Assembly: GCA_038893995.1 (NCBI GenBank)
Contig: JAWAQK010000003.1
Location: 24,710-80,784, forward strand
DNA length: 56,075 nucleotides
Direction of reading: 5' to 3'
Origin: Candidatus Thorarchaeota archaeon
GTDB taxonomy: Archaea > Asgardarchaeota > Thorarchaeia > Thorarchaeales > Thorarchaeaceae
In this document: in pieces, positions 21,116-35,588 of the stretch
Layout: each line of letters opens with the position of its first letter
Position numbering within the stretch: position 1 is the stretch's first letter
Program-made: the position numbers and the translations under genes
The notes under the pieces: model-generated
Database searches by the model: none
Told to the model about the DNA's origin: nothing
Seen by the model: only the letters and a program-made list of their open reading frames with translations

Positions 21116-21418
21116 TCAGAGCGATATGACCTTGTCATATTTCTCCATCATGAGATCGATTATGTCCGGGTAGCCCACAACATTCACAGACTTGTCGATA
21201 CGACTCCTCAGCCCGCGTTCCTCAACATGCTTCTCCGAGGCGTATGTCTTCAATCCACTTCTGATTAGGTCGTGCCCGTGCGTACATCCCATGTCGGCAA
21301 GATATACCCCATCCTGGAGCAACAGGAGCCCGATCTCGTCATTCCTTTGTCTCAGTGCATCGATGACCTCGGAAACGTCAGAGCAATCGCTAGACAACAC
21401 CACTAGAATTCTTGTCAA
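21116..21418 (-). CDS. dsrH: DsrH/TusB family sulfur relay protein
   Basis: LLLLQDGVYLA, HVEERGL, VGYPDIIDL. Third gene of the triad. Confidence 0.85.
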   Translation of the reverse strand: MTRILVVLSSDCSDVSEVIDALRQRNDEIGLLLLQDGVYLADMGCTHGHDLIRSGLKTYASEKHVEERGLRSRIDKSVNVVGYPDIIDLMMEKYDKVISL

Positions 21419-21431
21419 TGGCCTCTACCCC

Positions 21432-21782
21432 CTAGAAGGTCATTACAATGTCAGACTCGCAGAGCAGGGAAGCCACCTGCTTGTCGTCAGCAAGCCTCAC
21501 ACCATCAGAGAGTTCCGATGGATCGATCTTTCTATCTCTCAGGGAACGCATCGAGGCGTAGATGGTTCCCTCGAATCCCTCGTAGGTGCTCTTGAACATG
21601 CGAATGGGGCTCTCGTCAATGCCCCTCAGAAGCACGTAGACACCATCACCCATGAACAACAGTGTTGGGATGTGGTCCATACCAAACATACCAACAGCGG
21701 CTCTCCAGCCCTCGAAATTGTGTATCTTCCCGAAAGGTCTGCTTCTCACCAGCACAAGTACCCTCTTCTCTCTGAACTCCAA
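21432..21782 (-). CDS. dsrF: DsrF/TusC family protein
   Basis: VRSRPFG...EGWRAAVG, LLFMGDGVY, SLRDRKI, D.VMTF end. Confidence 0.8.
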   Translation of the reverse strand: MEFREKRVLVLVRSRPFGKIHNFEGWRAAVGMFGMDHIPTLLFMGDGVYVLLRGIDESPIRMFKSTYEGFEGTIYASMRSLRDRKIDPSELSDGVRLADDKQVASLLCESDIVMTF

Positions 21783-21797
21783 GTCAATCCACCTCTC

Positions 21798-22169
21798 CTA
21801 AGGACCCAGGCACAGAAGTCGGTCACACTGACCAACAATCTCAGCAAACTCTGTGAGGCCGGACACCTGTACCCCGGGAATGAAGTCACTACCACCCTGG
21901 TCGAAACCACGGGCCGATGTGCAGAGTCCACATGCCTGGAACTCGACACCAGCATCAGCCAGCTCCTGGAACCGCCTGTTCATGGGGATATCTGGGTCGG
22001 GATCCTGATTCAGTTTCGCATTGTTGACTCCGTCGATGAAGAGAAAGACTTTCACGTCATATCCCTTCTCGAGGGCAGCCCTGGCAAGTTCATAGAAAGT
22101 GTGGCTGTTCTCGTACGAGTAGGGACCAGTTGTTAGAAGAACCCCTAGAGTCTTGGTGTTCACGCTCAC
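21798..22169 (-). CDS. dsrE: DsrE/TusD family sulfurtransferase
   Basis: TTGPY, VFLFIDGV, ACGLCTSARG (persulfide Cys region), SGLTEFAE. Confidence 0.85.
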   Translation of the reverse strand: MSVNTKTLGVLLTTGPYSYENSHTFYELARAALEKGYDVKVFLFIDGVNNAKLNQDPDPDIPMNRRFQELADAGVEFQACGLCTSARGFDQGGSDFIPGVQVSGLTEFAEIVGQCDRLLCLGP

Positions 22170-22340
22170 TATCTCCGATGTTGCTGCTGACCAGTCGTCG
22201 TCTCGCCGCAGTAAAGAGGTTTTCCATTCGTTCCCACAAGATTGATAGCGCCTACGACACGCAGCATGACTACTCCGAATGACGTGGGATGAGATGCTGT
22301 GGACTTTGTTACCATATGCTACTCGACAAAGAGGGAAACA

Positions 22341-23360
22341 ATGAAGTATGAATACGACACCGACGAGCAGACATTGGACCTACACCACAGAGGTATCGTG
22401 TCAATAGACCTCTTGCCTCTGTCCGGCGCTGCGTGTCTCAAGAGCATAGATCTGAGCGAGAACAGCATTGCAGAGCTCGACATAGAACCACTTAGAGAGT
22501 GCAGTGGTCTGGAAACATTGAACCTCAACAAGAACCCTCTTGGAACCGTTGATCTGGGCCCTCTGTCTGATTGTCGTTCGCTCCGTGAGGTGGGCCTTGC
22601 TTCCACGGGAATTGAGTCAATCGACCTGACTCCTCTCAGAAACTGTCGAGAGTTTCGAAGGCTACGTCTTCAGGGTAACAGGCTCACGAGGATAGACCTG
22701 AGCCCGCTCTCAGGCTGCACGAAGATGGAGATCGTCGAACTTGAGAACAACCGACTTGAGACGCTGGACCTGAATCCGATGGCCGGGTGGCATCGTCTGG
22801 CACACCTCAACCTCATGTACAACCGTCTCAGGTCACTGGATCTGACTCCCCTCCGCTCCTGCACTGGTCTGAGCTACCTCTACCTACACCACAACAGGAT
22901 ACGGGAACTCGACCTCAGTCCGCTGCGTGGGTGTCCAAATCTTCAGATCCTCAGGTTAGGGGGCAACGCTCTTACGTACATCGATCTGAGTCCACTGTCC
23001 GATTGCAGAAACCTGAGCAGACTGGACCTTGAGATGAATAATCTCGAGTCGATAGATCTTACACCACTCTCAGGACTTGAGAGGTTACGGGTGCTCGACC
23101 TGTCAGGCAACAGACTCGAGACTCTGGACCTCAGTCCCCTCTCCGGCTGCAGGTCGCTTGAGGAACTTCATCTATACTCTGAACATCCACAGGAGAACCA
23201 TATCGAAACGCTCGATGTCACGCCCCTGTTCGACTGCCCTGGCCTCGAGGACCTGTGTGTGTCAGAGGATACTGTGTTGACCGCGGATCCTTCTGTCAAG
23301 AACATCGGGGGCACCCCACCAGCCCTGAGGGGTGTCAGCGCAAGGTTGAAGTGGCGCTGA
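22341..23360 (+). CDS. Leucine-rich repeat protein (22-aa repeats)
   Basis: About 12 repeats of LxxLxLxxNxLxxLDLxPLxxCxx. Start taken at ATG 22341 after gaggga. Confidence 0.92.
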   Translation: MKYEYDTDEQTLDLHHRGIVSIDLLPLSGAACLKSIDLSENSIAELDIEPLRECSGLETLNLNKNPLGTVDLGPLSDCRSLREVGLASTGIESIDLTPLRNCREFRRLRLQGNRLTRIDLSPLSGCTKMEIVELENNRLETLDLNPMAGWHRLAHLNLMYNRLRSLDLTPLRSCTGLSYLYLHHNRIRELDLSPLRGCPNLQILRLGGNALTYIDLSPLSDCRNLSRLDLEMNNLESIDLTPLSGLERLRVLDLSGNRLETLDLSPLSGCRSLEELHLYSEHPQENHIETLDVTPLFDCPGLEDLCVSEDTVLTADPSVKNIGGTPPALRGVSARLKWR

Positions 23361-23438
23361 AGGCAGTCCCCTGTCACCACTGAGTAGCGCTACCAGGAGG
23401 ATATGTCTGGAAAGCGCGACATGTGAGGTCGATCGAAG

Positions 23439-24086
23439 ATGGTTGTGGAGATGGATGAGGCAACTCGGGCACAGGTAGCACACTTATTCACTGGTCTCGA
23501 GGCAGATGTGACAATGCACGTCTTTGTGGAGTCCCGAGACTGTCTTTACTGCAACGACACCCTCGCACTGGCCAAGCTTGTTGCAGGAATATCGGACAAG
23601 GTACATGTCCAAGAGCACCGTGGAGCGCTGGGGACTGGCATTGCGGCTGAGCTGGGTGTCAAGTATGCCCCAGCAATAGTGCTACATGGAGAAAAGAGAT
23701 ACAAGGTGAGATTCTACGGTATACCAGTGGGACATGAGTTTGGCGCCCTGATAGGGACGATAGTGGATGTGTCGACGGGAACCCCACCCCTGCCACCCGA
23801 CGTGGTGAGCGACATCGCGGCCATAGAGAGTCCGATCCATACTCTAGTGTTCACGACGCCTCAGTGTCCGTACTGTCCCAATATGGTACGGTTGTCTCAC
23901 CAGTCTGCAATAATCAATCCACTCATCGAGTCGGACATGATCGAGTCGCTCGAGTTCCAACACCTCACAATGCACTATGGGGTCTTTGGGGTACCCAAGA
24001 CTGTAATCAATGACCAGGTCGAGATAGAGGGACTTGTACCGCCGGAGGTGTTCGTCGAGAAACTCTACCAGGCTGTAGAGAGATGA
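23439..24086 (+). CDS. Protein disulfide oxidoreductase (PDO, two thioredoxin folds)
   Basis: CLYC and CPYC motifs, RFYGIPVGHEF, GVPKTVIN. Confidence 0.9.
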   Translation: MVVEMDEATRAQVAHLFTGLEADVTMHVFVESRDCLYCNDTLALAKLVAGISDKVHVQEHRGALGTGIAAELGVKYAPAIVLHGEKRYKVRFYGIPVGHEFGALIGTIVDVSTGTPPLPPDVVSDIAAIESPIHTLVFTTPQCPYCPNMVRLSHQSAIINPLIESDMIESLEFQHLTMHYGVFGVPKTVINDQVEIEGLVPPEVFVEKLYQAVER

Positions 24087-24140
24087 CCATACAGTGGCGG
24101 TCTCCCTGAGGGCAAGAACCGAAGTTGGACTCAGAAAGGC

Positions 24141-25082
24141 CTACTGTCCCCCTGTGCCACAGGTGATGACAAACTCGGTCTCGTTGACATATCGGTAGGC
24201 CTGATACGCCGCATGCACACCCTCCGCGACTCCTGTGATGGCCTGCTTGAACTCCGAGTCTGTGACATCACCAGCCGCAAACACACCTGGTACGTTTGTT
24301 CTACCGGTGCGGTCTATCATGATCTCACCTCGGTCGTTAAGGGCCACACCAAGACGCTTGGCCAAGTCTGACTTCGGTATCCAGCCGATCGCCACAAACA
24401 CACCATCGAGAGGCAATACGTCGGAACCGTTGTAGGCTCTATCTAGCCTGACCGCCCTCACAGAGTTGTCACCCATTATCTCTACCACGTTGGCCTCGTT
24501 GATGATCTCGATATTGTCTGACTGCATGATCCTGCGGGCATTGACGGGCTCGGGTCGTATCTTCTTCCCCCTGTAGACTATGTACACCTTACGACAGTAC
24601 TTGGAGAGCAACAGGGCCTCCTTTGCAGCGCTGTCGGAACCACCTATTACCGCCACGGTCTTGTCCTTGTAGAGCGGAGCATCGCAGAGCGCGCAGTAGC
24701 TCACACCGCGATTCCTGTACTTGTCGTGCCCCTCGACTTGTAGCTCTCGCTCCTTGACACCGGTCGCAAGCACCAGGCTCTTTGCGAGAAAGGTCTTCTT
24801 GTCGGTCACGACGTAGAACAGGTTGTTGGAGCCACGGAAGACATCTGTCACGGTACCAGATTCCATATCGACGGGGTAAGACTTCGCATGTGACTTGATC
24901 TTCTCTGCGAGTTCCTTTCCCGTAAGCTGGATGAAGCCAGGGTAGTTTGCTACATCATCTGTCAGTGTTATGGTACCCCCATCCGTATCGCCAATCACGA
25001 GAGTTGACAGGTCAAGTCGCGCGGCATACATGGCGGTGGCATAACCGGTCACCCCAGAACCAATCACTATCAAGTCGTACAT
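24141..25082 (-). CDS. trxB: Thioredoxin-disulfide reductase
   Basis: GSGVTG FAD motif, NYPG, GVSYCALCD, GGSDSAAKEA, VFAAGDVT, QAITGVAEG. Confidence 0.92.
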   Translation of the reverse strand: MYDLIVIGSGVTGYATAMYAARLDLSTLVIGDTDGGTITLTDDVANYPGFIQLTGKELAEKIKSHAKSYPVDMESGTVTDVFRGSNNLFYVVTDKKTFLAKSLVLATGVKERELQVEGHDKYRNRGVSYCALCDAPLYKDKTVAVIGGSDSAAKEALLLSKYCRKVYIVYRGKKIRPEPVNARRIMQSDNIEIINEANVVEIMGDNSVRAVRLDRAYNGSDVLPLDGVFVAIGWIPKSDLAKRLGVALNDRGEIMIDRTGRTNVPGVFAAGDVTDSEFKQAITGVAEGVHAAYQAYRYVNETEFVITCGTGGQ

Positions 25083-25084
25083 GT

Positions 25085-25327
25085 CTACTTGCCTCCCAGC
25101 CTTCGGGTCATTCTCCTCTCTATCATCCGGTCATAGCCAACGAACACGTCGTTGTCAATCACTGTAACAGGCACTCCTCTCTGACCACTGATCTTGTACA
25201 TCTCCTCGAGTATGCGTGGGTCGTCGAGGACGCATTTCATCTCGAAGTCTACGCCTTTCTCCTTCAGGAACTCCCTCAATGCCTTCGTGTGCGGACAGTC
25301 TGGGACAGAATATATCGTCACCTTCAT
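25085..25327 (-). CDS. Glutaredoxin/NrdH-like redoxin (monothiol CPHT)
   Basis: IYS.PDCPHT, SGQRGVPVTVI, VGYD. Directly upstream of trxB. Confidence 0.85.
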   Translation of the reverse strand: MKVTIYSVPDCPHTKALREFLKEKGVDFEMKCVLDDPRILEEMYKISGQRGVPVTVIDNDVFVGYDRMIERRMTRRLGGK

Positions 25328-25473
25328 CGTCTGACCTCCGCCAACATCTGCAGTTGCTCAGAAACGACCTGTTGGGACATATAGCTTTTGGACCGTGTGT
25401 GTGCAATACCTTAACAGTCATAAGACAGGACGGCCAGACTAGGATCAGCGTAAACAGAGAGGATCAGCTGCAA

Positions 25474-25950
25474 ATGAGACGAGAGGAAACTATTGCCTTC
25501 GTGAACAGGCAGATCGAACTTGAGGAGAGGATAATCCAGATCACTGAGAGCAATGTGTCCAGACTTGGGAATGTCTTCGTCAAGGAACTCCTTCTAGGTA
25601 TAGCTCAGGACTCAAGAAAGCATATCTCGCTCCTGAACGCACTCAGACGTGCTGTGGAGGGACCAACACCCTTCATAAGTACAGCAGAACGAGACGCAAT
25701 CGCGAAGGGGATCGAGAAGCACATAGAGCTTGAGGCAAAGGCAATAGAGTCCTACGGCTATCTGATGGACACTTCTGATAACGAGCAGGTCAAGAGCATA
25801 GCCGCAATGATAAGAGAGGACGAGGTGCGACATCATCGACTCATGGTCGAGCTCCACAAGGCCATGATCGAACCTGAGACGCTCGATGAGGATACCATCT
25901 GGGACATGATATGGAAAGACACGCCCTGGCATGGCAGCCCTGGGGGATAG
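25474..25950 (+). CDS. Ferritin-like/rubrerythrin-like four-helix-bundle protein
   Basis: Two repeats: QIELE..DSRKH and HIELE..DEVRHH. Start taken at ATG 25474. Confidence 0.8.
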   Translation: MRREETIAFVNRQIELEERIIQITESNVSRLGNVFVKELLLGIAQDSRKHISLLNALRRAVEGPTPFISTAERDAIAKGIEKHIELEAKAIESYGYLMDTSDNEQVKSIAAMIREDEVRHHRLMVELHKAMIEPETLDEDTIWDMIWKDTPWHGSPGG

Positions 25951-25986: not shown

Positions 25987-26529
25987 TCAGAGCGCAAACT
26001 TCTGGAGAATGCTCATGAACTTGAAATCCAGGCTCTCAATCCCAACCCCTGTCTTGGCTGATATGAGCTGTGTCGGCATGCGGTAGGGGACAGCCAGCCT
26101 GTCCATCTCCTGCTGGACTTGGTCAAAGGGGGGATGCAGAAGGTCAATCTTGTTGCCCACGAGGATGAAACGCTCTCCGTCCCCATTGGAGAACTTGAAA
26201 TTGCTGTTCCTCTCGATGGCAGGAATCCAGTATCCGAAGATGGCGTCAAGTGTAGCCAGTTTCGTGACGTCAAAGAATAGCAGTCCAATCTTCGCACCTC
26301 GTATCATGGCCTGAAGAGACTCGATGAACCGCATCTGGCCACCAAAGTCCCATAGGCTCAGGGTGACCTCGCGACCATCGGGGAGAGTGACTTTCTTTGT
26401 GTCGAACGAGGCTCCAACGGTTGTCTTGAGTAGTGCGGGATCAGGAAAGCAACCGGTCGTCCACCTTGTAGTAAAGCTGGTCTTCCCACACTCAGTGTCT
26501 CCAAGGATCACAGCCTTCACTATTGCCAT
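25987..26529 (-). CDS. Small GTPase (Rab/Roc-like), module copy 2
   Basis: GDTECGKTS, KTTVGASF, WDFGGQ, LLFFDVT, NKID, ISAK. Confidence 0.92.
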   Translation of the reverse strand: MAIVKAVILGDTECGKTSFTTRWTTGCFPDPALLKTTVGASFDTKKVTLPDGREVTLSLWDFGGQMRFIESLQAMIRGAKIGLLFFDVTKLATLDAIFGYWIPAIERNSNFKFSNGDGERFILVGNKIDLLHPPFDQVQQEMDRLAVPYRMPTQLISAKTGVGIESLDFKFMSILQKFAL

Positions 26530-26591: not shown

Positions 26592-27980
26592 TTACGTACT
26601 TCCTCCAGCCAGCACCTTGGGATTCGCACGATTCAATAGTAGACCGGAGAGACCCATGCATCCAAGCCAGATCAGTGTGGTAGCGGGTTCAATGAGTAAC
26701 ACAGTCAGTCCGAAGAGCAGACATGCGCCCGAGAAGGCCGCAAATCTCACAGCAGCTCGGAAAGACCCCAGCCGTGCAAGCCTTCGTGCGATCTCAAGAT
26801 AGCCCACCGTCCCGACGAGCAGTAGGGCGATCATCACCGGATAGAGGGCCTCATAGTCCCATCGCATTGCTGTCCAGGTCGAGTCGTACCTGAGAGCGGG
26901 CAGTGCCAGAACTGCCTGCGATGATGACAGCCCAATGATAGAGAGTCTGAATATGGAGAACGTCATTGGCGAGAACAGGGGCCTAGTGGATGAGAGGATG
27001 AATGCTGCCACTCCTACAGTGCCTATCAACCATTCGACGTACAGCAGATATTCTCCACCGACTGTGCTGCGAGGCATTTCACCGGCGACGATAGCGGTCC
27101 ACATCAGCGACTGAAACGCAGATAGGCCACATATCACAATGAGAGATACCGACAGGTAGAGAGGCACCTTCGTCGACGGTGAGATATGACCCAGCAGGGG
27201 CTCCAGAGAACCTACTGCGACGATAGAGACTAGAAGTGCCACGATCGAGAACGTCCAGACCTGCCAGAGAGAGATCCCGCCTACCAGAACGGCAACAATT
27301 GAGATCGAAACAGTCGGCAACAGCACCAAGAACAGGGCAAACAGTGAAACTGATCTTCGCCATGTCTTGAGCAGAGACCCCATCATCGAACTGACCACTA
27401 TGACTGGCAGGAAAATCAGGAAGAACTTCAGATATAGCAGGATCTCGGTCAGTAGCGGGCCGCTGGCAATCAAGTACCAGAGTCCCAGGAATGTCAGATT
27501 CAGTAAGAATACTCCATTCGTGAATGGGGATGGTGCAGCACGTAGCAGATAGACGGACAGGAGCAGGCTCACGACTGACGAGATCGTGAGTGCGGTCATC
27601 AGAATCGGTGACACCTCTGTCGGGCTGATGCTGACGGCGTAGATCGCTCCAAGTGCCGAAAAGACAGCGATTGCATACACGAGCAGATGTGCACGTCTGT
27701 CTTCTGTTGCGACCTGCACCTCGCAGTTGATGATGAATATCAGGTATATCGAGATCCATAGCCGCTGCACAATTGTACCCTCGGCAAACACTAGCGTGAT
27801 CGCCATGAGACCAACCATAAGCGACGATATCCCAAAGAATGCCAGCGCACGGACTGTTGAGGGTTTCAACGCTCTCCTCTTGGACCCCACTGCGAGCGTG
27901 TACTGGACAAGGCTGACCAGCAGTATTCCAAAGGAGAGGACTGCAGCTACAGAGTACGTCAGACTCCAGGGGAATGCCAT
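26592..27980 (-). CDS. 15-TM membrane protein, paralog C
   Basis: 15 hydrophobic segments by eye. Shares RALxF/YG, PSxF, SLxxxWRR, PLYL, YVEW and GxxRAAxR motifs with the two paralogs. Confidence 0.85.
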   Translation of the reverse strand: MAFPWSLTYSVAAVLSFGILLVSLVQYTLAVGSKRRALKPSTVRALAFFGISSLMVGLMAITLVFAEGTIVQRLWISIYLIFIINCEVQVATEDRRAHLLVYAIAVFSALGAIYAVSISPTEVSPILMTALTISSVVSLLLSVYLLRAAPSPFTNGVFLLNLTFLGLWYLIASGPLLTEILLYLKFFLIFLPVIVVSSMMGSLLKTWRRSVSLFALFLVLLPTVSISIVAVLVGGISLWQVWTFSIVALLVSIVAVGSLEPLLGHISPSTKVPLYLSVSLIVICGLSAFQSLMWTAIVAGEMPRSTVGGEYLLYVEWLIGTVGVAAFILSSTRPLFSPMTFSIFRLSIIGLSSSQAVLALPALRYDSTWTAMRWDYEALYPVMIALLLVGTVGYLEIARRLARLGSFRAAVRFAAFSGACLLFGLTVLLIEPATTLIWLGCMGLSGLLLNRANPKVLAGGST

Positions 27981-27990
27981 GTTTCATCTA

Positions 27991-29433
27991 TCACCTCTGA
28001 CGACCAAATCCACGTTTCAAGAAGGATGGCCAGGCGACTCCGGTCGGACTGCTTCCGATCAGCACAAGCCCTGCACCGAGGAGAGACACAACCACGAGAC
28101 CAAGCACTAGTCTGTCCGAGAACATTGCAATCATGCCGATGGCGAGCGCGGCAAAGACAAACCTCAGATACCGACCGGCTGCTTTCCCCGATCCAGACTT
28201 CTGCATACCCCTCGCAACCCATACGAAAGCAGAAACACCAGCAAGAAGGACGAAGATCACAGGTCCATAGATGTCCGAGAGCTCATACCTGCTCTCCATG
28301 ACCACAGGGTGCGCCAGTGTGAGCAGAGCTGCGATCAGCAAGACTAGGAGGTCGATGGTCAACGAAATCGCCCGTTCACTGAATGTGGATGAGAGGGCTG
28401 CCAATGAGAAGCTGAAGACGGCCACCAGGCCGATGATCCACGAGACATATAGCATGTTCGGATCCCAGTTCTGAAACTCATACATCGGCATCATGAGGGC
28501 AGTTGCCAGATCGGACGGAGCATGTGGAAGACTCCAGTTTCCGGTCATGGTCGCTATTGCCCAAGACACTGTGTGAGTTGATTCCAGAATGGACACGGCC
28601 ATGATAGTGATCGACATGAATAGTGGGCTTCTTGCTCTGGTTATGACAGCCTGGTCGACAAAGTAGCCCAGGGGAACGAGCGCAAGTACCGATGCAAATG
28701 TGCCAGCCAGGACATACGGCACGATTATCGCATCCAGAAGAGTGCCACTCATGGCGCATGCAGTCAGATTCGCCACACAGATGGTGACCGCGAGGAGCAG
28801 AGCCGAATAGGTCAGGATCATACGCCATGGTCTTCTTATTGACACTAGGATCGCTGATGCTACCACTGACGGCGCTATCAGCAATGGGAAGTACTGAAAC
28901 TGAGGCGCTGGTGGTGCAAAGATACCATAGAACTGGGAGTACCAGGATACGACAAAGAGTATCAGCAGGACAAGATTGCTCATGCTGAAGGCGGACAGGC
29001 TCCGGCGGACAAAACGGACCGAGAGCCCTGCAGTGACCAACAGCCCTGCAAACAACATGAGCGACCGTATCACCTCAAAGCCAGGAGGTGAAAGCAGGAG
29101 CATGATGATGAGATAGGCGCTCAGAGGAACGGTCAGGATTGCAACCGCCAGTCGTCTCACTCTGCTGGGTATGGCAACCTGTCCAACACCGTTCACCATG
29201 AGTAGAAAGAACATCACGACCCAGACTCTGGCCAGTTCCAGTACGAATGCGGCAAAGACTATCTGTAGACCAAGCATGAGTGTCGCCGCACCATACATGA
29301 CTAGCGCTCGTCCGGATTCTTTCGACAGAGTGGGATAGACCCTCCTCAGGACCAGCCCGTAGTGCAGGGTTGACAATGCCAGCAGGGCAAACGAGACGAG
29401 AGCCGCAGTCTGATATGCTATCTGAAAGTCCAT
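27991..29433 (-). CDS. 15-TM membrane protein, paralog B
   Basis: 15 hydrophobic segments; RALVMYG, SAFS, SIRRPWR, PLFM, HTVSW, YVSW, GSGKAAGR. Confidence 0.85.
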   Translation of the reverse strand: MDFQIAYQTAALVSFALLALSTLHYGLVLRRVYPTLSKESGRALVMYGAATLMLGLQIVFAAFVLELARVWVVMFFLLMVNGVGQVAIPSRVRRLAVAILTVPLSAYLIIMLLLSPPGFEVIRSLMLFAGLLVTAGLSVRFVRRSLSAFSMSNLVLLILFVVSWYSQFYGIFAPPAPQFQYFPLLIAPSVVASAILVSIRRPWRMILTYSALLLAVTICVANLTACAMSGTLLDAIIVPYVLAGTFASVLALVPLGYFVDQAVITRARSPLFMSITIMAVSILESTHTVSWAIATMTGNWSLPHAPSDLATALMMPMYEFQNWDPNMLYVSWIIGLVAVFSFSLAALSSTFSERAISLTIDLLVLLIAALLTLAHPVVMESRYELSDIYGPVIFVLLAGVSAFVWVARGMQKSGSGKAAGRYLRFVFAALAIGMIAMFSDRLVLGLVVVSLLGAGLVLIGSSPTGVAWPSFLKRGFGRQR

Positions 29434-29441
29434 CGGAATGG

Positions 29442-29816
29442 CTACCTCCAGAGGTCTCCGATCTCCTTTCCCTTCTGGGAGAGAATGTCTTCTGCTGCAG
29501 CAGCGAGGTCATTCTGCTCCTCCTGAGCCCTCCTGTACAGCGCTTGGAGGGCGTCGCCAGTCTCTCGTTCTCCGTCTCCCTCGCATATGAACACGGTTCG
29601 GTCTCGCAGAATATAACCAATGACACCCGTTTCAGCCTTCATGAACATGGGTTGACCGCTAGTGGTCCTGCTACCCGCCCGTTCTAATGCCGATGACACC
29701 AACTGGGTCACACCAGTCAGCAGCGCGATTCTCTGGTCATTAGATCCCTCGCGAGGGTAGAGTATGTCTGAGTTCATTGTATCAAGCTCGACGCGAGCAA
29801 TCAGTCGGATGACCAT
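29442..29816 (-). CDS. Longin-fold protein, module copy 2
   Basis: 124 aa, beta-beta-alpha-beta-beta-beta-alpha-alpha pattern. Paralog of 32203-32574 (ARVELD, LYPRE, ALL.GV.QL, FMK..TGVIGY, EIG.LW). Confidence 0.7.
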   Translation of the reverse strand: MVIRLIARVELDTMNSDILYPREGSNDQRIALLTGVTQLVSSALERAGSRTTSGQPMFMKAETGVIGYILRDRTVFICEGDGERETGDALQALYRRAQEEQNDLAAAAEDILSQKGKEIGDLWR

Positions 29817-29819
29817 CTC

Positions 29820-30089
29820 TCAGTTACCTCCAAACGCGGATCGTATCCAGTCAATCTCCTGTCCCTTCTTGGCACCGGTCCTGACTGCAACATTGACATC
29901 CCTGACAGCAAGACCCTTCTCAGTGAGGTAGACCGTTACCAAGAGTTCGTGCCCCTTCTCACACTTGGTGATCACTGTGGGGGACCGACCCTCACTCTTT
30001 ATTCTTGCCTTGAGGGTTTCTGCTTCCTCTGTCGACAGTCGGAGGAATGCAGGTCCTCTGCACTCGGGACACGAGAATCGGAGCTCCAA
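29820..30089 (-). CDS. Small Zn-ribbon protein (CxxC...CxxGH), module copy 2
   Basis: FSCPEC, EGRSP, KCEKGHELLVTV, DWIRSAFGG. TTG start. Confidence 0.8.
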   Translation of the reverse strand: MELRFSCPECRGPAFLRLSTEEAETLKARIKSEGRSPTVITKCEKGHELLVTVYLTEKGLAVRDVNVAVRTGAKKGQEIDWIRSAFGGN

Positions 30090-30159
30090 CTACATCACCG
30101 CGAATGCACTGACACTTGGCTGGGATATAGAGATTGCCTGTGCATACCCGATCAATCGA

Positions 30160-30729
30160 TCAGTCATTTCCGTTGATCACCGGTACGCTGCGGAATCGCT
30201 CGACCTTCGACATAAAGTCACGTTCAAGCTCCTGAAAGCCCACGCCTGTCTTTGCTGAGATGATGTGACCTGTCATCCCGTATCTCTTGACGAACGTAGC
30301 CATCTCATTGGCCACCCCGTCTAGCGCATCCGGCCCAAGGAGATCGGCCTTGTTCCCTACTACTATGAATCGTGCACCGTCACTTCCCCTGGGTTTCAGG
30401 TTGCTGTTCTCCTCAATCGCACCGAGCCAGAAGTTTTCCAGGCTATCGAGGGTCTGAAGTTTCGAAACATCGAAGAAGAGTAGACCAAGTGAAGCACCCC
30501 TTATCATGGTCTTCATGTGGTCAATGAACCTTGACTGGCCGCCAAAGTCCCATATGGAGAGCGTGACATCCGAGCCGTCACCGAGGCTGACCTTCTTGGT
30601 GTCGAAAGAGGCGCCTATAGTTGTGCGAAGATATGCGGGGTTTGGGAAATTTCCTGTCGTATAGCGCTTGGTGAAGGAAGTCTTCCCGCACTCAGTGTCT
30701 CCAAGCACGCACACCTTCAAGATAGTCAT
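30160..30729 (-). CDS. Small GTPase (Rab/Roc-like), module copy 1
   Basis: GDTECGKTS, RTTIGASF, WDFGGQ, LLFFDVS, NKAD, ISAK. Close paralog of 25987-26529. Confidence 0.92.
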   Translation of the reverse strand: MTILKVCVLGDTECGKTSFTKRYTTGNFPNPAYLRTTIGASFDTKKVSLGDGSDVTLSIWDFGGQSRFIDHMKTMIRGASLGLLFFDVSKLQTLDSLENFWLGAIEENSNLKPRGSDGARFIVVGNKADLLGPDALDGVANEMATFVKRYGMTGHIISAKTGVGFQELERDFMSKVERFRSVPVINGND

Positions 30730-30738
30730 TGATGTACA

Positions 30739-32187
30739 TCACCACCTGATTGCACCATCCTCGGTCACACCCAACTCGCTCAGCTCATCCAGCCTGCGGA
30801 CCGCCCTCTGGACCCTGGCAACAAACCACGGGCTTGCAGCAATCGTGAAGAGACCGCCGAAGAAGTATATCGCAGCCAACAACAGGTCGAATCCTATTTG
30901 AGAGCTCCAGACGGACACTACGATCATGATGAACGCAGAGAGCTGGAAGAGGACTAGTCTCTGTGCAGCTCTCTGGGCGCCTCTCTTGGAAAATCTGTAG
31001 AAGACGTACATCATCATAGGGAAGGACAAGATAACACCGAATGTGACTGCGCCGTTGACGAGCAATCTCTCTGCTGTGGCAGATAGTCCAGCTATGGCGA
31101 CAAAGGGGAGTGCTACGACGCTTATGGCCGTAGGAATCATCGTGGAAACTACGATGGAGGGAACATGCCACCAGGCCGAGAGAGCGACGTTAACATAGGC
31201 CATGAAGAAACATGAGATGGTCACTGCTGTTGTTACCACCACAAACCACTCGAGATACGGTAGTGACCCGGCGAGTGTTGGGTCGAATCTGATCGAGACC
31301 TGTAACATCCAGACCAGTGAATGCATGATGAGCACCAGGGCCGACCCCGCACTACCAGCGCCTAGGTACGCGGGCGTCCGGGAACCGGAGGATGCCGCTT
31401 GCCGGAAGAAGTAGTCCGTTGACAATAGCAGTGCGGCGATCGCAAAGATCTGGAATCCGACTACCAACCATACCGAGAAGTCGCCAATGGTCGGAACGAA
31501 CAGGGACACTAAGAATATGGACAGGCAGACTGATACAAGATAGGTTATCAGGAAAAGCAGTATGGTGACCCTCCTGGGTTGACGCAGAGAGCCGAGCACG
31601 GCACCCATCAGTGCCAGAGGGAATATCTGCACTGGAAATATCTCAACTGGGGATGTCGAACCTTCGATAGATATCAAGTACGTCACCGGAAATAGCGAGA
31701 TGAGGGCCACGAGGGAACCCGAGAATACCGAGGGTAACCCGAAGACTGCTCTCAGGGCACCAACAAAACATGCTATCGCTAGCAGGATGAGCAAAGACTG
31801 AGCCAAGATCACACCATGAAGGAACGAGAGCCTGGCAAGGACGTACTCTACAGCCAGAATGACCAGCAGGACAGCTACCGATAGACGACCTGTCCTGACT
31901 GAGAAGGACGGACGGAGTACGTGCAGTTCGCTGGTCAGCGTCAGGACCAGAAATGCGGCACCCATGGTCGTGACAAATTCAGACACTCCGACAAGTCGAC
32001 CCATCACTATCATGAGGCTCAACACAAGACATGCTCCACCAAAGTATCTCAGGGCATAACGAGTTGCGGCGGAGATGGCCTCTGTTGCCCGGGTCCTCTT
32101 TATGAATACCGCGAGTGAAACCAGCACTGACAATAACGCCAGTAGAAGCCCCAGAGAGATAACAGTACTTATCGCCTCACTGTTCAT
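30739..32187 (-). CDS. 15-TM membrane protein, paralog A
   Basis: 15 hydrophobic segments with basic loops after odd-numbered helices; ALRYFG, PSVFS, SLRQPRR, PAYL, HSLVW, YLEW, GAQRAAQR. RBS aggagg upstream. Confidence 0.85.
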   Translation of the reverse strand: MNSEAISTVISLGLLLALLSVLVSLAVFIKRTRATEAISAATRYALRYFGGACLVLSLMIVMGRLVGVSEFVTTMGAAFLVLTLTSELHVLRPSFSVRTGRLSVAVLLVILAVEYVLARLSFLHGVILAQSLLILLAIACFVGALRAVFGLPSVFSGSLVALISLFPVTYLISIEGSTSPVEIFPVQIFPLALMGAVLGSLRQPRRVTILLFLITYLVSVCLSIFLVSLFVPTIGDFSVWLVVGFQIFAIAALLLSTDYFFRQAASSGSRTPAYLGAGSAGSALVLIMHSLVWMLQVSIRFDPTLAGSLPYLEWFVVVTTAVTISCFFMAYVNVALSAWWHVPSIVVSTMIPTAISVVALPFVAIAGLSATAERLLVNGAVTFGVILSFPMMMYVFYRFSKRGAQRAAQRLVLFQLSAFIMIVVSVWSSQIGFDLLLAAIYFFGGLFTIAASPWFVARVQRAVRRLDELSELGVTEDGAIRW

Positions 32188-32202: not shown

Positions 32203-32574
32203 CTATCCCCACAGACTGCCAATTTCCGAACCTGGCCGATTTAGTGACTCCTCAATTGCCTTGATTATCTCAGACTCTTCTGCGTTTCTCATATCCAGTA
32301 CGAGGTTGAGTATGTCCCTGGCCTCTCTCTCGTCATCGGCCTCACTGAAGAACACAGTATTTCGCGTCTGGGCATAGCCGATGACGCCAGTACCGGACTT
32401 CATGAAGTGTACCCTGTTCTCTGCATTCTCTCCCATCTGTGCAAGTGCGGCCTGGATCAGTTGTACAACGCCTGCCAGTAGGGCCACTCTCTCCTCGTTG
32501 TCTACCTCGCGAGGATAAAGCTCATGTGCCTTCATTGCGTCCAGTTCAACGCGCGCCACGAAACGAACCGTCAC
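32203..32574 (-). CDS. Longin-fold protein, module copy 1
   Basis: 123 aa: VRFVARVE / HELYP / helix / VHFMKS / VIGYAQ / TVFFSEA / two helices. GTGA overlap with the upstream Zn-ribbon gene. Confidence 0.7.
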   Translation of the reverse strand: MTVRFVARVELDAMKAHELYPREVDNEERVALLAGVVQLIQAALAQMGENAENRVHFMKSGTGVIGYAQTRNTVFFSEADDEREARDILNLVLDMRNAEESEIIKAIEESLNRPGSEIGSLWG

Positions 32575-32852
32575 AGGTCTTCACCACCAAATGCCTTCAT
32601 CAGCCACTCGTCGTCTTTCTTGCCAGTCTCCTTTCTCTGCGGGACTGCCACGTCTCTGATGCACAGACCCTTGCCGGATGGGACCGTACTGACAGTAACA
32701 AGGATCTCGTGTCCGTTCTCACACTTGACTATGAGAGGCGGCGACCTACCTTCCTTCTGGATCCTCGACAGAATCCTTTGTGCCTCGTCATCCTCGATCT
32801 CGAGGACTGCCGATACCTTGCACTCGGGACATCTGAACACCAGTCGTACCAA
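32571..32852 (-). CDS. Small Zn-ribbon protein (CxxC...CxxGH), module copy 1
   Basis: FRCPEC, EGRSP, KCENGHEILVTV, EWLMKAFGG. TTG at 32852 aligns with the paralog's start; the ORF-track start at 32927 is probably too early. Confidence 0.8.
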   Translation of the reverse strand: MVRLVFRCPECKVSAVLEIEDDEAQRILSRIQKEGRSPPLIVKCENGHEILVTVSTVPSGKGLCIRDVAVPQRKETGKKDDEWLMKAFGGEDL

Positions 32853-32899
32853 CGATCCCACGTCCCTGTTATCTGCGCGAGACTGCCACGTCCAATCCA

Positions 32900-33060
32900 T
32901 TATTAAGTCTACTCGTGGGCAATCCATGCTATCGACTAGACATCAGGTTATTAAGATTTGTTTAATATCACTAGGTGCGTATCAGAACTGTAGACCAAAT
33001 GACTTGTGTCCATAGACAGTCCGATGCCAAGTGTCAGATTGACAAGTATTAAATCAGCTT
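32900..33060. promoter_or_regulatory. AT-rich divergent promoter region between the GTPase module and the TrxB-like operon
   Basis: Several TATA-like boxes (ttattaag, tttaatat, gtattaaat) in an otherwise GC-rich sequence between divergent genes. Confidence 0.5.
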
Positions 33061-33085: not shown

Positions 33086-34093
33086 ATGACAGATATCTAC
33101 GACTGCATCGTCGTAGGCGGAGGACCTGCAGGATGTTCAGCAGCGCTTCATCTTGCCTACCACGACAGGAGGGTGTTGGTGCTCGATAGGGGCACAAGTC
33201 CCATGCACTTTCACACCAACACTATCATGAACTTCCTCGGTGGTCCAACATACCACGAGGGACGCACTCTGTTACGCCAGATGCAAGGACTCGCAAGGGC
33301 TGCGGGAGCTAGGCTCGTCAACGCCAACGTAGTCGAGGTGTCAGGGACCTGCCCAGACTTCGTGGTGAGAACCGACAAGAGCTACCGCACCAACGACAGG
33401 TCAACATACCGCGCGAAGACACTCATATTTGCGACAGGGACCGCAAGGAAACATCCCAGAGTAAATGGGTCCTGGAGACAATGGCTTCCGGTCGCAAACG
33501 CCGGGAACTCAGCCTTCTACTGTCCTGACTGTGAGGCACCCCTATGTCGTGACAAGAAAGTACTGGTCGTAAACGCAGGCACAGTGGGGAGTGCCCTACA
33601 TGTGGCCAATTCGCTGACCCGCTTCACGAACTCAATAGAGATACTCATGACAGAGGATGCTTACGTTCCCATAGAGTCCCAAGACCTCAGCAGGCTTGAC
33701 GACTCGCCATACGTGTGGTACAGAGGAAAGATCAAGGCTGTCGACTATTCCCAGCCAGGTCAGAGACAATCGGTATTGCTTGAGTCAGGAGAAAAGCTCA
33801 AGTGTCAGGTGTTCTTTGTCGCTCACGTCGCCGAGGCCAGATCGGAGTTGGCCAGGACGTTAGGAGTCCAGGTGGACCAGAGAGGGAACATCTTGACGGA
33901 CCACCGCGGAAAGACCAATATCGAGGGAATCTGGGCAGCGGGTGATGTCAGGCCGGTCACGCAGCAGGTGGCTTTCGCAATTGGGACGGGCAATTACGCT
34001 GCTCTGATGGTCAACCAGTACCTCGGCAACGAACATGAGTCCAGAGGCGAGTTTGATCATCCAGACTGTCGGAGCCCACTGTTCATGGGGTAG
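33086..34093 (+). CDS. TrxB-like FAD-dependent disulfide oxidoreductase
   Basis: GGGPAG, FATG, FYCPDCE, GIWAAGDV. The NAD(P)H-binding loop is atypical (NAGTVGSA). Confidence 0.85.
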   Translation: MTDIYDCIVVGGGPAGCSAALHLAYHDRRVLVLDRGTSPMHFHTNTIMNFLGGPTYHEGRTLLRQMQGLARAAGARLVNANVVEVSGTCPDFVVRTDKSYRTNDRSTYRAKTLIFATGTARKHPRVNGSWRQWLPVANAGNSAFYCPDCEAPLCRDKKVLVVNAGTVGSALHVANSLTRFTNSIEILMTEDAYVPIESQDLSRLDDSPYVWYRGKIKAVDYSQPGQRQSVLLESGEKLKCQVFFVAHVAEARSELARTLGVQVDQRGNILTDHRGKTNIEGIWAAGDVRPVTQQVAFAIGTGNYAALMVNQYLGNEHESRGEFDHPDCRSPLFMG

Positions 34094-34184
34094 CAGTGCG
34101 GACCAAGACGCGTGGCCCGTGAGGACTCAAGCGAATGCTTAAATACACGGCCTGGTTAAACATCGTTAAGGGTGAGGAGATAGA

Positions 34185-34658
34185 ATGACCAGCACCACTG
34201 GAAGCATCAGAGAAACTGTGATGAGACAGATCGAGATCGAGAAGAGCATCATTCAGCAGATACTGCAGGCCGAAAAAGAGGCAGAAGACACCGCAGTCAA
34301 ACTTGTGTATACTGATGTGAGGATGGACAGCGAGAAGCATGTCAGGTTCTTGGAAGTACTACTCGAGCTGATGGACAAGACTCCCTGTGATGAATGGAGT
34401 GCAAAGATCGATCGCTACATAGACAGAGTGAAGCTTGAGAGGACGCTGCAGTCCATGAAACAGAAGGAGAACGAGATGTCCGAACTATCCGAGAAACTCG
34501 TTGAGATGATCAACGACCCTCTCGGGCGGTTTCTCGTGACTCACCTGTCTGAAGACGAGAAGAGGCACGAGTCCGACCTAGAGGAACTCATCAAGTTGGT
34601 CAAGACAGCACCGCTGCAGCCAAAGCGGGCAAAGAAAGGTTCAGACATCAAGTGTTAG
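34185..34658 (+). CDS. Ferritin-like four-helix-bundle protein
   Basis: QIEIE..DSEKH and E..DEKRH. Same family pattern as 25474-25950. Confidence 0.75.
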   Translation: MTSTTGSIRETVMRQIEIEKSIIQQILQAEKEAEDTAVKLVYTDVRMDSEKHVRFLEVLLELMDKTPCDEWSAKIDRYIDRVKLERTLQSMKQKENEMSELSEKLVEMINDPLGRFLVTHLSEDEKRHESDLEELIKLVKTAPLQPKRAKKGSDIKC

Positions 34659-34692
34659 CTGAGAACAGGGAAGACCTGGAGAGTGCAGGTAA

Positions 34693-35166
34693 ATGCCGAC
34701 TCTCAGTGATATTGATCACAATGCCCCATCGTGTACCGAGTACATAGAGAGGATGTCGCCGGTCTACCGGGGTGGCTACACCAGGTTCGCACAGGACTAT
34801 GTCCTGAAGACAGAGGCGGTGAAGAAGCTCGAGGAGTGCGTGCGGGACTACACCATCGTGGTCCTCTTTGCCGACTGGTGCGGGGATGCCAGGAGGGTGG
34901 TCCCGGTCCTCTCACTGCTGGAAAAGAGGCTGGGGATAAAGGTGATCGCGCTTGGAGGTATGACCAAACCTCCGTATGGCTCGACAGAGCTCTGGCAGGT
35001 GCCTCCAAGCCCAAGAGAGGTCAACATCTTTGGCGTGACTGCAAGTCCTACTATAATCGTCTTTGACAAGTCAGGCGAGGAGGTGGGACGAATGAGGACT
35101 AGGCCCAGGATGGCGAAGACAGTAGAGGAGGAGATCCTCAAGATAATAGAATCGGGTGGTCACTAG
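34693..35166 (+). CDS. Thioredoxin-family protein (WCGD monothiol)
   Basis: FADWCGDARRVVP, cis-Pro PTIIVFD..G.EVGR. Confidence 0.8.
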   Translation: MPTLSDIDHNAPSCTEYIERMSPVYRGGYTRFAQDYVLKTEAVKKLEECVRDYTIVVLFADWCGDARRVVPVLSLLEKRLGIKVIALGGMTKPPYGSTELWQVPPSPREVNIFGVTASPTIIVFDKSGEEVGRMRTRPRMAKTVEEEILKIIESGGH

Positions 35167-35171
35167 GATCC

Positions 35172-35588
35172 TCACTGGGGGTCCTGTGGACATCCGCCAC
35201 ACCGCTCTGGCTGCATCACGGGACAGGTCCTCACATGGGGTCCACCATGCTTCAGGCCCCACTGACGCATCCGATCGAGTATGTCTCTCAGGTCATTTCC
35301 TCTATCGGTGAGTGCGTAGTACACGTTGGTAGTAGGGCCCGACGAGTCTACTGTCCTCGTCAATAGACCCTCTGCCTCCAGGTCCCTCAGATGTTCTGTC
35401 AACACCTTCCTGCTCACCCATCCCATACGCTGGTGGATGTCAGTGAATCTGATACCACGGGGATCTGAGGCTGCCATCAGACCCTGGAGTACAAGGATAG
35501 TCCACCTCCTCTTGAGAATGGAGAGTGTCCTGAAGACTGGACATGCCTCTACAAGGGCCCTATCATCGGTAGATACGGGATGTGTCAT
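35172..35588 (-). CDS. HxlR/MarR-type winged-helix transcriptional regulator
   Basis: CPV..TL.IL..RWTILVL, RFTDI, VSRKVLTEHLRDLEAEGLL.R, YALTDRG..L, QWG. Confidence 0.9.
   Translation of the reverse strand: MTHPVSTDDRALVEACPVFRTLSILKRRWTILVLQGLMAASDPRGIRFTDIHQRMGWVSRKVLTEHLRDLEAEGLLTRTVDSSGPTTNVYYALTDRGNDLRDILDRMRQWGLKHGGPHVRTCPVMQPERCGGCPQDPQ

Follow-up and report, generated by a model that had tools for sequence, protein, structure and literature searches.

The window analysed here is a 56,075-nucleotide stretch of a Candidatus Thorarchaeota contig (JAWAQK010000003.1). It carries two cassettes, each with genes for a Zn-ribbon protein, a longin-like protein, one or two membrane proteins with 15 transmembrane (TM) helices (A, B and C) and a Rab-like GTPase (Table 1). 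A preliminary description of this DNA had dealt with the membrane proteins and the GTPase and missed the longin-like and Zn-ribbon proteins, which are obligatory members of the cassette.

Table 1. Genes of the two cassettes and structural parts of membrane protein C (positions within the window)
Feature	Position	Strand	Remarks
Zn-ribbon protein, cassette 1	32571..32927	minus	up to 118 aa, true start may be internal; Zn_ribbon_Brz E 0.008, weak
Longin-like protein, cassette 1	32203..32574	minus	123 aa; no Pfam match; fold matches of Atlas model
Membrane protein C	30739..32187	minus	ORF, 482 aa; 15 TM and C-terminal helix; the only membrane gene in cassette 1
C, 7TM unit 1	31579..32187	minus	residues 1-203
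C, linker TM8	31498..31575	minus	residues 205-230; AF2 helix; turns chain back to the outside; conserved (R/K)-P-W-R motif just before
C, 7TM unit 2	30835..31479	minus	residues 237-451; conserved H289, W293, G403xxxAAxR loop, S452-P453
C, cytoplasmic basic helix	30769..30831	minus	residues 453-473; AF2 helix; position of GPCR helix 8
Rab-like GTPase, cassette 1	30160..30729	minus	189 aa; 9 nt downstream of C; Pfam Ras 1.5e-23
Zn-ribbon protein, cassette 2	29820..30089	minus	89 aa; Zn_ribbon_Brz E 0.01, weak
Longin-like protein, cassette 2	29442..29816	minus	124 aa; paralog of 32203-32574; conserved C-terminal EIGDLW tail
Membrane protein B	27991..29433	minus	ORF, 480 aa; first of two membrane genes in tandem cassette 2; long TM10-TM11 outer loop
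Membrane protein A	26592..27980	minus	ORF, 462 aa; second of two membrane genes in tandem cassette 2
Rab-like GTPase, cassette 2	25987..26529	minus	180 aa; Pfam Ras 3.1e-23

BLASTP aligned A with B over the full length (4e-19) and B with C (2e-9), and A matched C at only 0.05. A family profile unites all three at E 1e-111 or better, and A and B are colinear with C in the alignment. Judged by sequence, A, B and C are real paralogs that have diverged from one another. Searches of the three proteins against Pfam (E up to 1) and NCBIfam returned no match, and nothing in the PDB was hit by the family profile (E up to 10). The Pfam result agrees with the earlier statement that a soluble output domain is missing; indeed, C consists of TM helices and a tail of about 30 aa (Pfam, AlphaFold2).

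The AlphaFold2 (AF2) model of C had a pLDDT of 88.5 and a pTM of 0.88, although the structure models were built on a shallow alignment of 22 sequences. It revealed 15 TM helices in the 7+1+7 arrangement that had been proposed, followed by an additional C-terminal helix after TM15. The helices of unit 1 span residues 2-34, 40-65, 69-91, 95-118, 125-150, 154-175 and 184-199, and those of unit 2 residues 237-267, 270-299, 303-335, 338-365, 370-401, 405-431 and 434-451. The basic loops quoted in the preliminary description were found in C following TM1, 3, 7, 9 and 13. Across the 58 family members, lysines and arginines numbered 18.8 in the loops after odd-numbered TMs plus the tail versus 3.9 elsewhere (3.6 on average in the C-terminal tail). 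By the positive-inside rule the protein should therefore be oriented N-out/C-in, as previously suggested, and since a single linker helix, TM8, joins the two bundles, both share one orientation. As modelled, two seven-helix bundles of GPCR shape are thus linked covalently in each protein, which can be described as a pseudo-dimer. To our knowledge, an architecture of two parallel 7TM bundles and one linker helix was not previously known, and we found no description of one in the literature searched.

We also compared the two units with each other. The preliminary description had seen a likeness between TM1-2 and TM9-10; this was not supported, as hhalign of unit 1 against unit 2, run locally and globally with 22 or 58 sequences, gave a probability of 3% and nothing significant. 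The one weak match, also seen in weak BLASTP pieces, was out of register and paired TM1-loop-TM2 with TM13-loop-TM14. On the structural level, both units aligned with the same solved chains, 8jmt_A (rmsd 3.7 and 5.1) and 8oyy_B (rmsd 3.5 and 3.7). The expectation that the two halves superimpose was borne out in this indirect way, which suggests that units 1 and 2 have one common fold.

In the AF2 model, each unit reveals the seven-helix order and packing of a GPCR and is placed in GPCR orientation, N-out/C-in. Structural neighbours of the units include the 7TM domains of adhesion, class B and class C GPCRs (for example ADGRL3, 8jmt, and GABA-B, 9jqx), at a sequence identity of 7-12%. Several of the GPCR alignments of C extend to residues 470-475. 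Searches for membership in a GPCR family (7tm_1, 7tm_2, 7tm_3 and others) gave no match in Pfam to E 1, in NCBIfam or among PDB chains to E 10, and equivalents of DRY (TM3/TM11) and NPxxY (TM7/TM15) are absent from the sequence and the family profile. Eukaryotic GPCRs thus have no sequence relationship with the 15-TM family; they also differ in that the 15-TM protein carries two units per chain, and is partnered by a small GTPase and a longin protein instead of a heterotrimeric G protein. Of the GPCR-like logic proposed earlier, the GPCR-shaped 7TM units and the conserved GTPase operon stand, whereas a sequence signal to eukaryotic GPCRs is missing.

Further matches were obtained to LYCHOS (GPR155), a 17-TM lysosomal cholesterol sensor, where they cover the GPCR-like part (chain residues about 370-716) and not the transporter part. 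Besides this part, LYCHOS has a PIN-like transporter domain and carries a DEP domain, whereas the 15-TM protein has another 7TM unit; LYCHOS shows no sequence similarity to the 15-TM protein, and the likeness is limited to logic. Nearly all other matches were receptors. A 12- or 14-TM transporter fold, named in the preliminary description as the outcome that would overturn it, was not found: the model has 15 TMs in two parallel 7TM units, and the best 50 VIA matches of either unit contain no MFS, APC or MOP transporter. A single MATE match in Foldseek had E 0.17 and a TM-score of 0.12. PAQR/HlyIII proteins and microbial rhodopsins are likewise absent from the best 50 VIA matches of either unit, and we set these readings aside as less probable; a list of best matches may nevertheless miss such a fold, for the transporters too. 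The hits to HlyIII and DUF6962 were to predicted models only, with unit 1 (TM-score 0.58-0.65). PAQRs are inserted the other way round and bind zinc through several His residues, a site that the 15-TM protein lacks. Bacterial 7TM receptors (7TMR-DISM, 7TM-HD, 7TM-GGDEF) are examples of 7TM bundles employed for sensing in prokaryotes, and unit 2 resembles predicted 7TM-GGDEF/7TM-HD models (TM-score 0.35-0.48). No Pfam match links the 15-TM protein to them, however, and they combine one 7TM bundle with a fused cytoplasmic output, whereas here two units act with a separate, unfused GTPase module.

The motifs noted earlier in TM10, TM11 and before TM14 were recovered in the family in a more precise form. 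H289 is kept in 54 of the 58 members and an aromatic residue at position 293 in 57; the outer end of TM11 carries an aromatic-V-(D/E)-W motif, and G403, present in all 58, begins the G403xxxA407A408xR410 motif before TM14. Conserved motifs of the family comprise PSxF, (R/K)PWR, FxxQA, GxxxAAxR and SP. The cytoplasmic third contains defined conserved motifs and holds most of the 40 best-conserved positions, although a cytoplasmic face better conserved than the outer loops is commonplace among membrane proteins generally. Family-wide, the cytoplasmic loops are constant in length and the outer loops vary, corroborating the variability of the external loops described for the three paralogs. The TM10-TM11 outer loop ranges from 7 to 30 aa, and both the alignment and the loop lengths confirm the insertion reported for B.

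The order Zn-ribbon protein, longin-like protein, one or two 15-TM genes and Rab-like GTPase was found at 30 loci in 28 other genomes wherever the contig reaches, with the genes on one strand and separated by gaps of few bases. Among solved structures, the cassette 1 GTPase is nearest to Rab7 (1e-17) and Thor-Rab (7ezb, 2e-16). The G1-G5 motifs of the cassette GTPases are invariant, and their mean column identity is 64% versus 37% for the membrane proteins. They have no C-terminal Cys and therefore need a protein partner to reach the membrane. The Zn-ribbon protein of cassette 1 shows a CPEC...CxNGHE motif and a DW..KAFGG tail. The 123-124-aa partner looks longin-like by structure in the Atlas model (pLDDT 0.66), which matched COPI zeta/AP sigma (TM-score 0.71), sybindin/sedlin (0.72) and Longin (0.69) within a range of 0.67-0.72; one cluster named Roadblock/LAMTOR2 was also near by features. 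Since the longin-like and Zn-ribbon proteins are obligatory, coupling may run via the longin and not directly, and this may be a conservon-like rather than a GPCR-like logic.

The family is rare: an exhaustive HMMER search returned 22 matches among 1.84 billion representatives and no member longer than 482 aa. Word-indexed homolog searches came back almost empty or were swamped by hydrophobic words; the one for longer forms found none, which is weak evidence. It is limited to one Thorarchaeia family, plus one marginal match in a sister family. This possible distant relative (L055, sister family f2) reached an hhalign probability of only 20% and was left out of the membership. In the tree, the membrane-protein clades track cassette position. 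C falls, on a very long branch, into a clade from single-gene cassettes; B belongs to the clade of genes that come first in tandem cassettes, and A to the clade of those that come second (SH-aLRT 99). From their sequences, A, B and C represent three orthologous subfamilies of an unannotated family restricted to Thorarchaeia. The GTPase tree mirrors that of the membrane proteins, and the cassette 2 GTPase clusters with GTPases from tandem cassettes. Together with the operon, kept in every locus the contig reaches, these matching trees uphold the proposed link to the co-encoded GTPase. The literature searched yielded no published description of the cassette or the family; a 2026 preprint mentions '7TM proteins' from Asgard archaea and 'a class C GPCR' cluster, with no details that could be matched to the 15-TM family.

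Asgard genomes encode dozens of small GTPases, plus dozens of longin and roadblock proteins. Their partners are generally not co-encoded, as stated explicitly for MK-D1 (PMC10933270), and are therefore hard to assign. The cassette, being a fixed quartet, pairs each GTPase with its longin, Zn-ribbon and membrane protein, and so ties these soluble proteins to a receptor-shaped membrane protein of an unannotated family. It offers a defined, expressible set for asking how anchor-less archaeal Rab-like GTPases reach membranes, and bears also on archaeal longins as exchange factors and on the control of a small GTPase by a 7TM bundle.

A comparable four-gene operon is known from the actinobacterial conservons (CvnA-D/Mfp), which have been regarded as the prokaryotic equivalent of G-protein signalling (PMC13343842, PMC13621833, PMC4316618); the Thorarchaeota cassette can be seen in the same way. 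Both combine a polytopic membrane protein of sensor type and a Ras-superfamily GTPase with two small proteins, one of them a regulator of roadblock/longin type. However, CvnA is a histidine-kinase-like sensor, whereas the tandem 7TM protein carries no HisKA/HATPase or other Pfam domain. The conservon regulator is MglB/roadblock, here it looks longin-like and has no Robl_LC7 Pfam match; the fourth protein is DUF742, here a CxxC...CxxxH Zn-ribbon with no DUF742 Pfam match; and the GTPase is MglA-like, here Rab-like and adjacent in every locus the contig reaches. Detectable homology between the two systems is confined to the GTPase superfamily. A second likeness concerns Mon1-Ccz1, the longin-domain exchange factor of Rab7. 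Among solved structures the cassette GTPase is nearest to Rab7/Ypt7, including chain 5ldd_C from a structure of Ypt7 bound to Mon1-Ccz1, and its cassette also encodes a longin-like protein. This archaeal longin, with a putative exchange role, consists of one domain of 124 aa, and the Mon1-Ccz1/Ypt7 system has no 7TM partner.

We lean towards the 15-TM protein being the membrane component, for sensing or docking, of a small-GTPase module comparable to the conservons; as the receptor of a small-GTPase switch, or the platform on which its parts dock, it is a strong candidate that is yet unproven. A signal would be received by the variable outer face and, in the outer half of unit 2, by the conserved His/Asp-Glu/Trp cluster. 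On the cytoplasmic side, the rigid and conserved face would dock the longin protein and/or the GTPase. The longin protein would act in the manner of the longin-type exchange factors or platforms that serve eukaryotic Rabs, and docking would determine which nucleotide the GTPase carries or where on the membrane it is located. The conserved operon indicates a functional link, not a direction of signalling; we infer that direction, like sensing and docking, whereas architecture, topology, fold likeness, operon conservation and co-diversification are shown by the data. The GTPase could instead regulate the membrane protein. More tentative, and on balance doubtful, is a native Asgard prokaryotic pathway in which a tandem GPCR-fold receptor, a longin exchange factor and a Rab-like GTPase form a switch responding to an external or membrane cue. 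If true, it would represent an independent or ancestral-type receptor-G-protein coupling, in which a single operon brings together two hallmarks of eukaryotes, namely 7TM receptors and Rabs under longin control.

Other readings of the cassette have to be weighed against a sensor or docking subunit. The 7TM bundles might move a solute or ion, gated by the GTPase and longin in a FeoB-like manner, and OST-alpha, a GPCR-fold transporter, and the transporter domain of LYCHOS provide precedents. We regard this as quite unlikely, given that the LYCHOS matches lie on its GPCR-like part, the other matches are nearly all receptors, the units are parallel with no inverted repeat, and Pfam and NCBIfam gave no transporter signal. 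It is also improbable that the GTPase recruits or rearranges the membrane protein in protrusions or vesicles, with no external signal involved. The pairing of a Rab7-like GTPase with a longin does resemble eukaryotic trafficking modules, and a trafficking-like role is the usual interpretation of GTPase and longin families in Asgards (PMC10933270; 10.1101/2020.10.19.343400), but by Pfam the locus encodes no coat, ESCRT or SNARE-like parts, and such a role explains neither the receptor-type fold nor the variability of the outer loops.

Finally, the 15-TM protein might sense nothing and passively tether the complex of anchor-less GTPase, longin and Zn-ribbon protein, as Ragulator and the SR-beta/SR-alpha longin pair do in eukaryotes. 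The missing lipidation site of the GTPase, the conserved cytoplasmic face with its fixed-length loops and the conserved operon are all in line with an anchor or scaffold, which we nevertheless consider unlikely. Fifteen helices in two elaborate 7TM bundles exceed the needs of an anchor, and conservation extends to the aromatics in the outer half of unit 2, to H289 and to the acidic position where TM11 reaches the outer side. Moreover, three subfamilies have long been maintained, each with its own GTPase clade, hinting toward different inputs.

The window carries two tandem copies of a small operon, here called cassettes, both on the minus strand and with intergenic gaps of -4 to 70 nt. Each encodes a Zn-ribbon protein (CPEC...CxNGHE), a longin-like protein, one or two 15-TM membrane proteins (A, B and C) and a Rab-like GTPase.

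Cassette genes and flanking genes in the window
Feature	Coordinates	Strand	Database match
Zn-ribbon protein, cassette 1	32571-32927	minus	weak Pfam Zn_ribbon_Brz match
Longin-like 123-aa protein, cassette 1	32203-32574	minus	no Pfam or NCBIfam match
Membrane protein C, 482 aa, cassette 1	30739-32187	minus	no Pfam or NCBIfam match
Ras-family GTPase, cassette 1	30160-30729	minus	Pfam Ras 1.5e-23
Zn-ribbon protein, cassette 2	29820-30089	minus	weak Pfam Zn_ribbon_Brz match
Longin-like 124-aa protein, cassette 2	29442-29816	minus	no Pfam or NCBIfam match
Membrane protein B, 480 aa, cassette 2	27991-29433	minus	no Pfam or NCBIfam match
Membrane protein A, 462 aa, cassette 2	26592-27980	minus	no Pfam or NCBIfam match
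Ras-family GTPase, cassette 2	25987-26529	minus	Pfam Ras 3.1e-23
Pyr_redox_2 reductase, flank	24141-25082	minus	
Pyr_redox_2 reductase, flank	33086-34093	plus	
Thioredoxin-like proteins, flanks	23439-24086 and 34693-35166		
Rubrerythrin-like ORF, flank	25216-25950		
HxlR regulator, flank	35172-35588		
LRR protein, flank	22299-23360		

The order Zn-ribbon gene, 124-aa protein gene, one or two membrane genes and GTPase gene, all on one strand, was found in all 30 loci compared (from 28 other genomes), wherever the contig reaches. A maximum likelihood tree (quick search) divided the membrane genes into three groups: the C type from single-gene cassettes, the B type comprising the first genes of tandem cassettes, and the A type comprising the second genes (SH-aLRT 99). 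The branch leading to C is very long. The GTPase tree gave an identical partition, and we therefore conclude that cassettes are inherited as units. Mean column identity was 64% for the GTPases compared with 37% for the membrane proteins. In two loci (L019 and L039, from genome G353 and a Thorarchaeota MAG) the tandem pair is a recent duplication inside the C-type clade, apart from the old B/A pair; a second membrane gene was therefore acquired more than once.

A and B could be aligned over their full length (BLASTP 4e-19, 23% identity), while B and C matched at 2e-9 and A and C at 0.05 at best. The family profile recognized each of them at E 1e-111 or better, confirming the three paralogs of the preliminary description, and revealed no fourth copy in the source genome. 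Searching 1.84 billion cluster representatives exhaustively with HMMER, with C as query, recovered 22 proteins, none longer than 482 aa and the full-length ones spanning 441-482 aa. Among 400 genomes of the phylum, the 22-member profile matched 40 of 85 further genomes belonging to the window's family, gave one marginal match in a sister family and none in more than 300 genomes from other families. Related contigs belong to Candidatus Thorarchaeota/Promethearchaeota MAGs, which bears out the Asgard-type genome assumed earlier. The marginal match (L055:3350-6571; genome G311, sister family f2) is a 457-aa polytopic protein (genome profile search E 7.5e-9, hhalign probability 20%) that carries a K-x-G..A-x-R loop and an SP motif. 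Its gene has as neighbours a GTPase of the Ras family, which matches the cassette GTPase profile at 8e-46, an ORF of 138 aa and a gene for a zinc-finger protein of 266 aa; the locus may be a diverged cassette version beyond the main family.

The AlphaFold2 model of C, built from a shallow 22-sequence alignment (pLDDT 88.5, pTM 0.88), contains seven helices (residues 2-199; unit 1), one linker helix (205-230; TM8), seven further helices (237-451; unit 2) and a terminal helix (453-473), as expected from the proposed 7+1+7 architecture. Modelling residues 1-204 separately reproduced the seven helices of unit 1 (pLDDT 89.2). Across 58 non-identical family members, the loops following odd-numbered helices plus the tail contain on average 18.8 K+R versus 3.9 in the other loops. 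This supports the N-out/C-in topology, and consequently both units begin outside and finish inside. Cytoplasmic loop lengths are nearly invariant, whereas outer loops vary (7-30 aa for TM10-11, 4-20 aa for TM12-13); the long insertion reported for B indeed lies in the TM10-11 loop.

The majority of the 40 best-conserved columns fall in the cytoplasmic third. Motifs on this side are T-(R/K)-R-A-L where TM2 begins, P-S-x-F-(S/T) following TM5, (R/K)-P-W-R following TM7, P-L-(D/N/E)-(Y/F)-F-x-x-Q-A..T-G-A-R-T-P linking TM9 to TM10, G403-x-x-x-A-A-x-R-F in the TM13-TM14 loop (which connects helices 5 and 6 of unit 2) and S-P opening the terminal helix. Conserved features of unit 2 in its outer half are H289 (54/58 members), an aromatic residue at position 293 (57/58) and, at the outer end of TM11, the motif aromatic-V-(D/E)-W. 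The three motifs described previously, in TM10, TM11 and before TM14, are thus real and occur family-wide.

Foldseek again returned GPCR-type families, although the E-values were weak: unit 1 reached 3e-3, and its TM-score to mGlu2 was up to 0.64. Matches among predicted structures included, for unit 2, 7TM-GGDEF and 7TM-HD proteins of bacteria and, for unit 1, DUF6962 and HlyIII. Since both units of C align to identical solved chains, they appear to share one common arrangement. On these models, GPCR membership is a matter of fold only. The suggested internal repeat was not recovered in sequence, as hhalign found none between units 1 and 2 (probability 3%). The sole internal similarity in C is weak and not in register: it links TM1-basic loop-TM2 to TM13-basic loop-TM14 (residues 18-65 and 382-430; hhalign E 0.013-0.016, also small BLASTP pieces between paralogs) and may reflect common loop chemistry rather than ancestry.

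In the cassette GTPases the G1 (GDTECGKT), DxxGQ, NKxD and SAK motifs are invariant, and the family alignment shows no C-terminal cysteine. Among solved structures, Rab7 (1e-17) and the Thorarchaeota Rab 7ezb (2e-16) come closest. Both window GTPases have an unusual P-loop, in which Thr/Glu occupy the Ras G12/G13 positions, and the extended switch I, F-P-x-P-x-x-L-(R/K)-T-T-(I/V)-G-A-S-F-D-T, is invariant. The 123-aa protein resembles COPI zeta/AP sigma, sybindin/sedlin and Longin (TM-score about 0.7; Atlas model of medium confidence), and one Thorarchaeota family carries a longin-type domain fused to an Arf/Ras GTPase. The longin-like and Zn-ribbon proteins have short, strongly conserved ends (...G-x-E-I-G-D-L-W-G and ...D-W-L-x-K-A-F-G-G, respectively) that look like candidate docking peptides.

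We slightly favor the 15-TM protein as the sensor/docking membrane subunit of a small-GTPase module, in which the conserved cytoplasmic face would dock and the outer face diversifies. A passive membrane anchor for the co-inherited partners is unlikely, and a transporter regulated by the GTPase appears less probable still. That the cassette is a trafficking-type effector we regard as the most doubtful reading. The closest functional analogue of the putative sensor/docking module would be the actinobacterial conservon/G protein system of sensor kinase, roadblock, DUF742 and Ras-like GTPase (PMC13343842, PMC13621833, PMC4316618), although cassette components belong with it solely by the GTPase superfamily, all other comparisons being negative. 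In MK-D1, GTPase and longin/roadblock genes are mostly outside operons (PMC10933270). The main text of the asCOG preprint makes no mention of proteins described as 7TM, transmembrane or receptor. Asgard "7TM proteins" and a "class C GPCR" cluster figure in a 2026 preprint, with no details matchable to the 15-TM family.

Thiol-redox genes are located on both sides of the cassette pair (21192-25950 and 33086-35588). An AT-rich stretch at 32928-32985 (...GATATTAAACAAATCTTAATAACC...), 10-40 nt 5' of the first ATG in the Zn-ribbon gene of cassette 1, is a plausible candidate for the archaeal TATA/BRE region of this operon. The annotated start of this gene may be too far upstream, because orthologues start near the CPEC motif.
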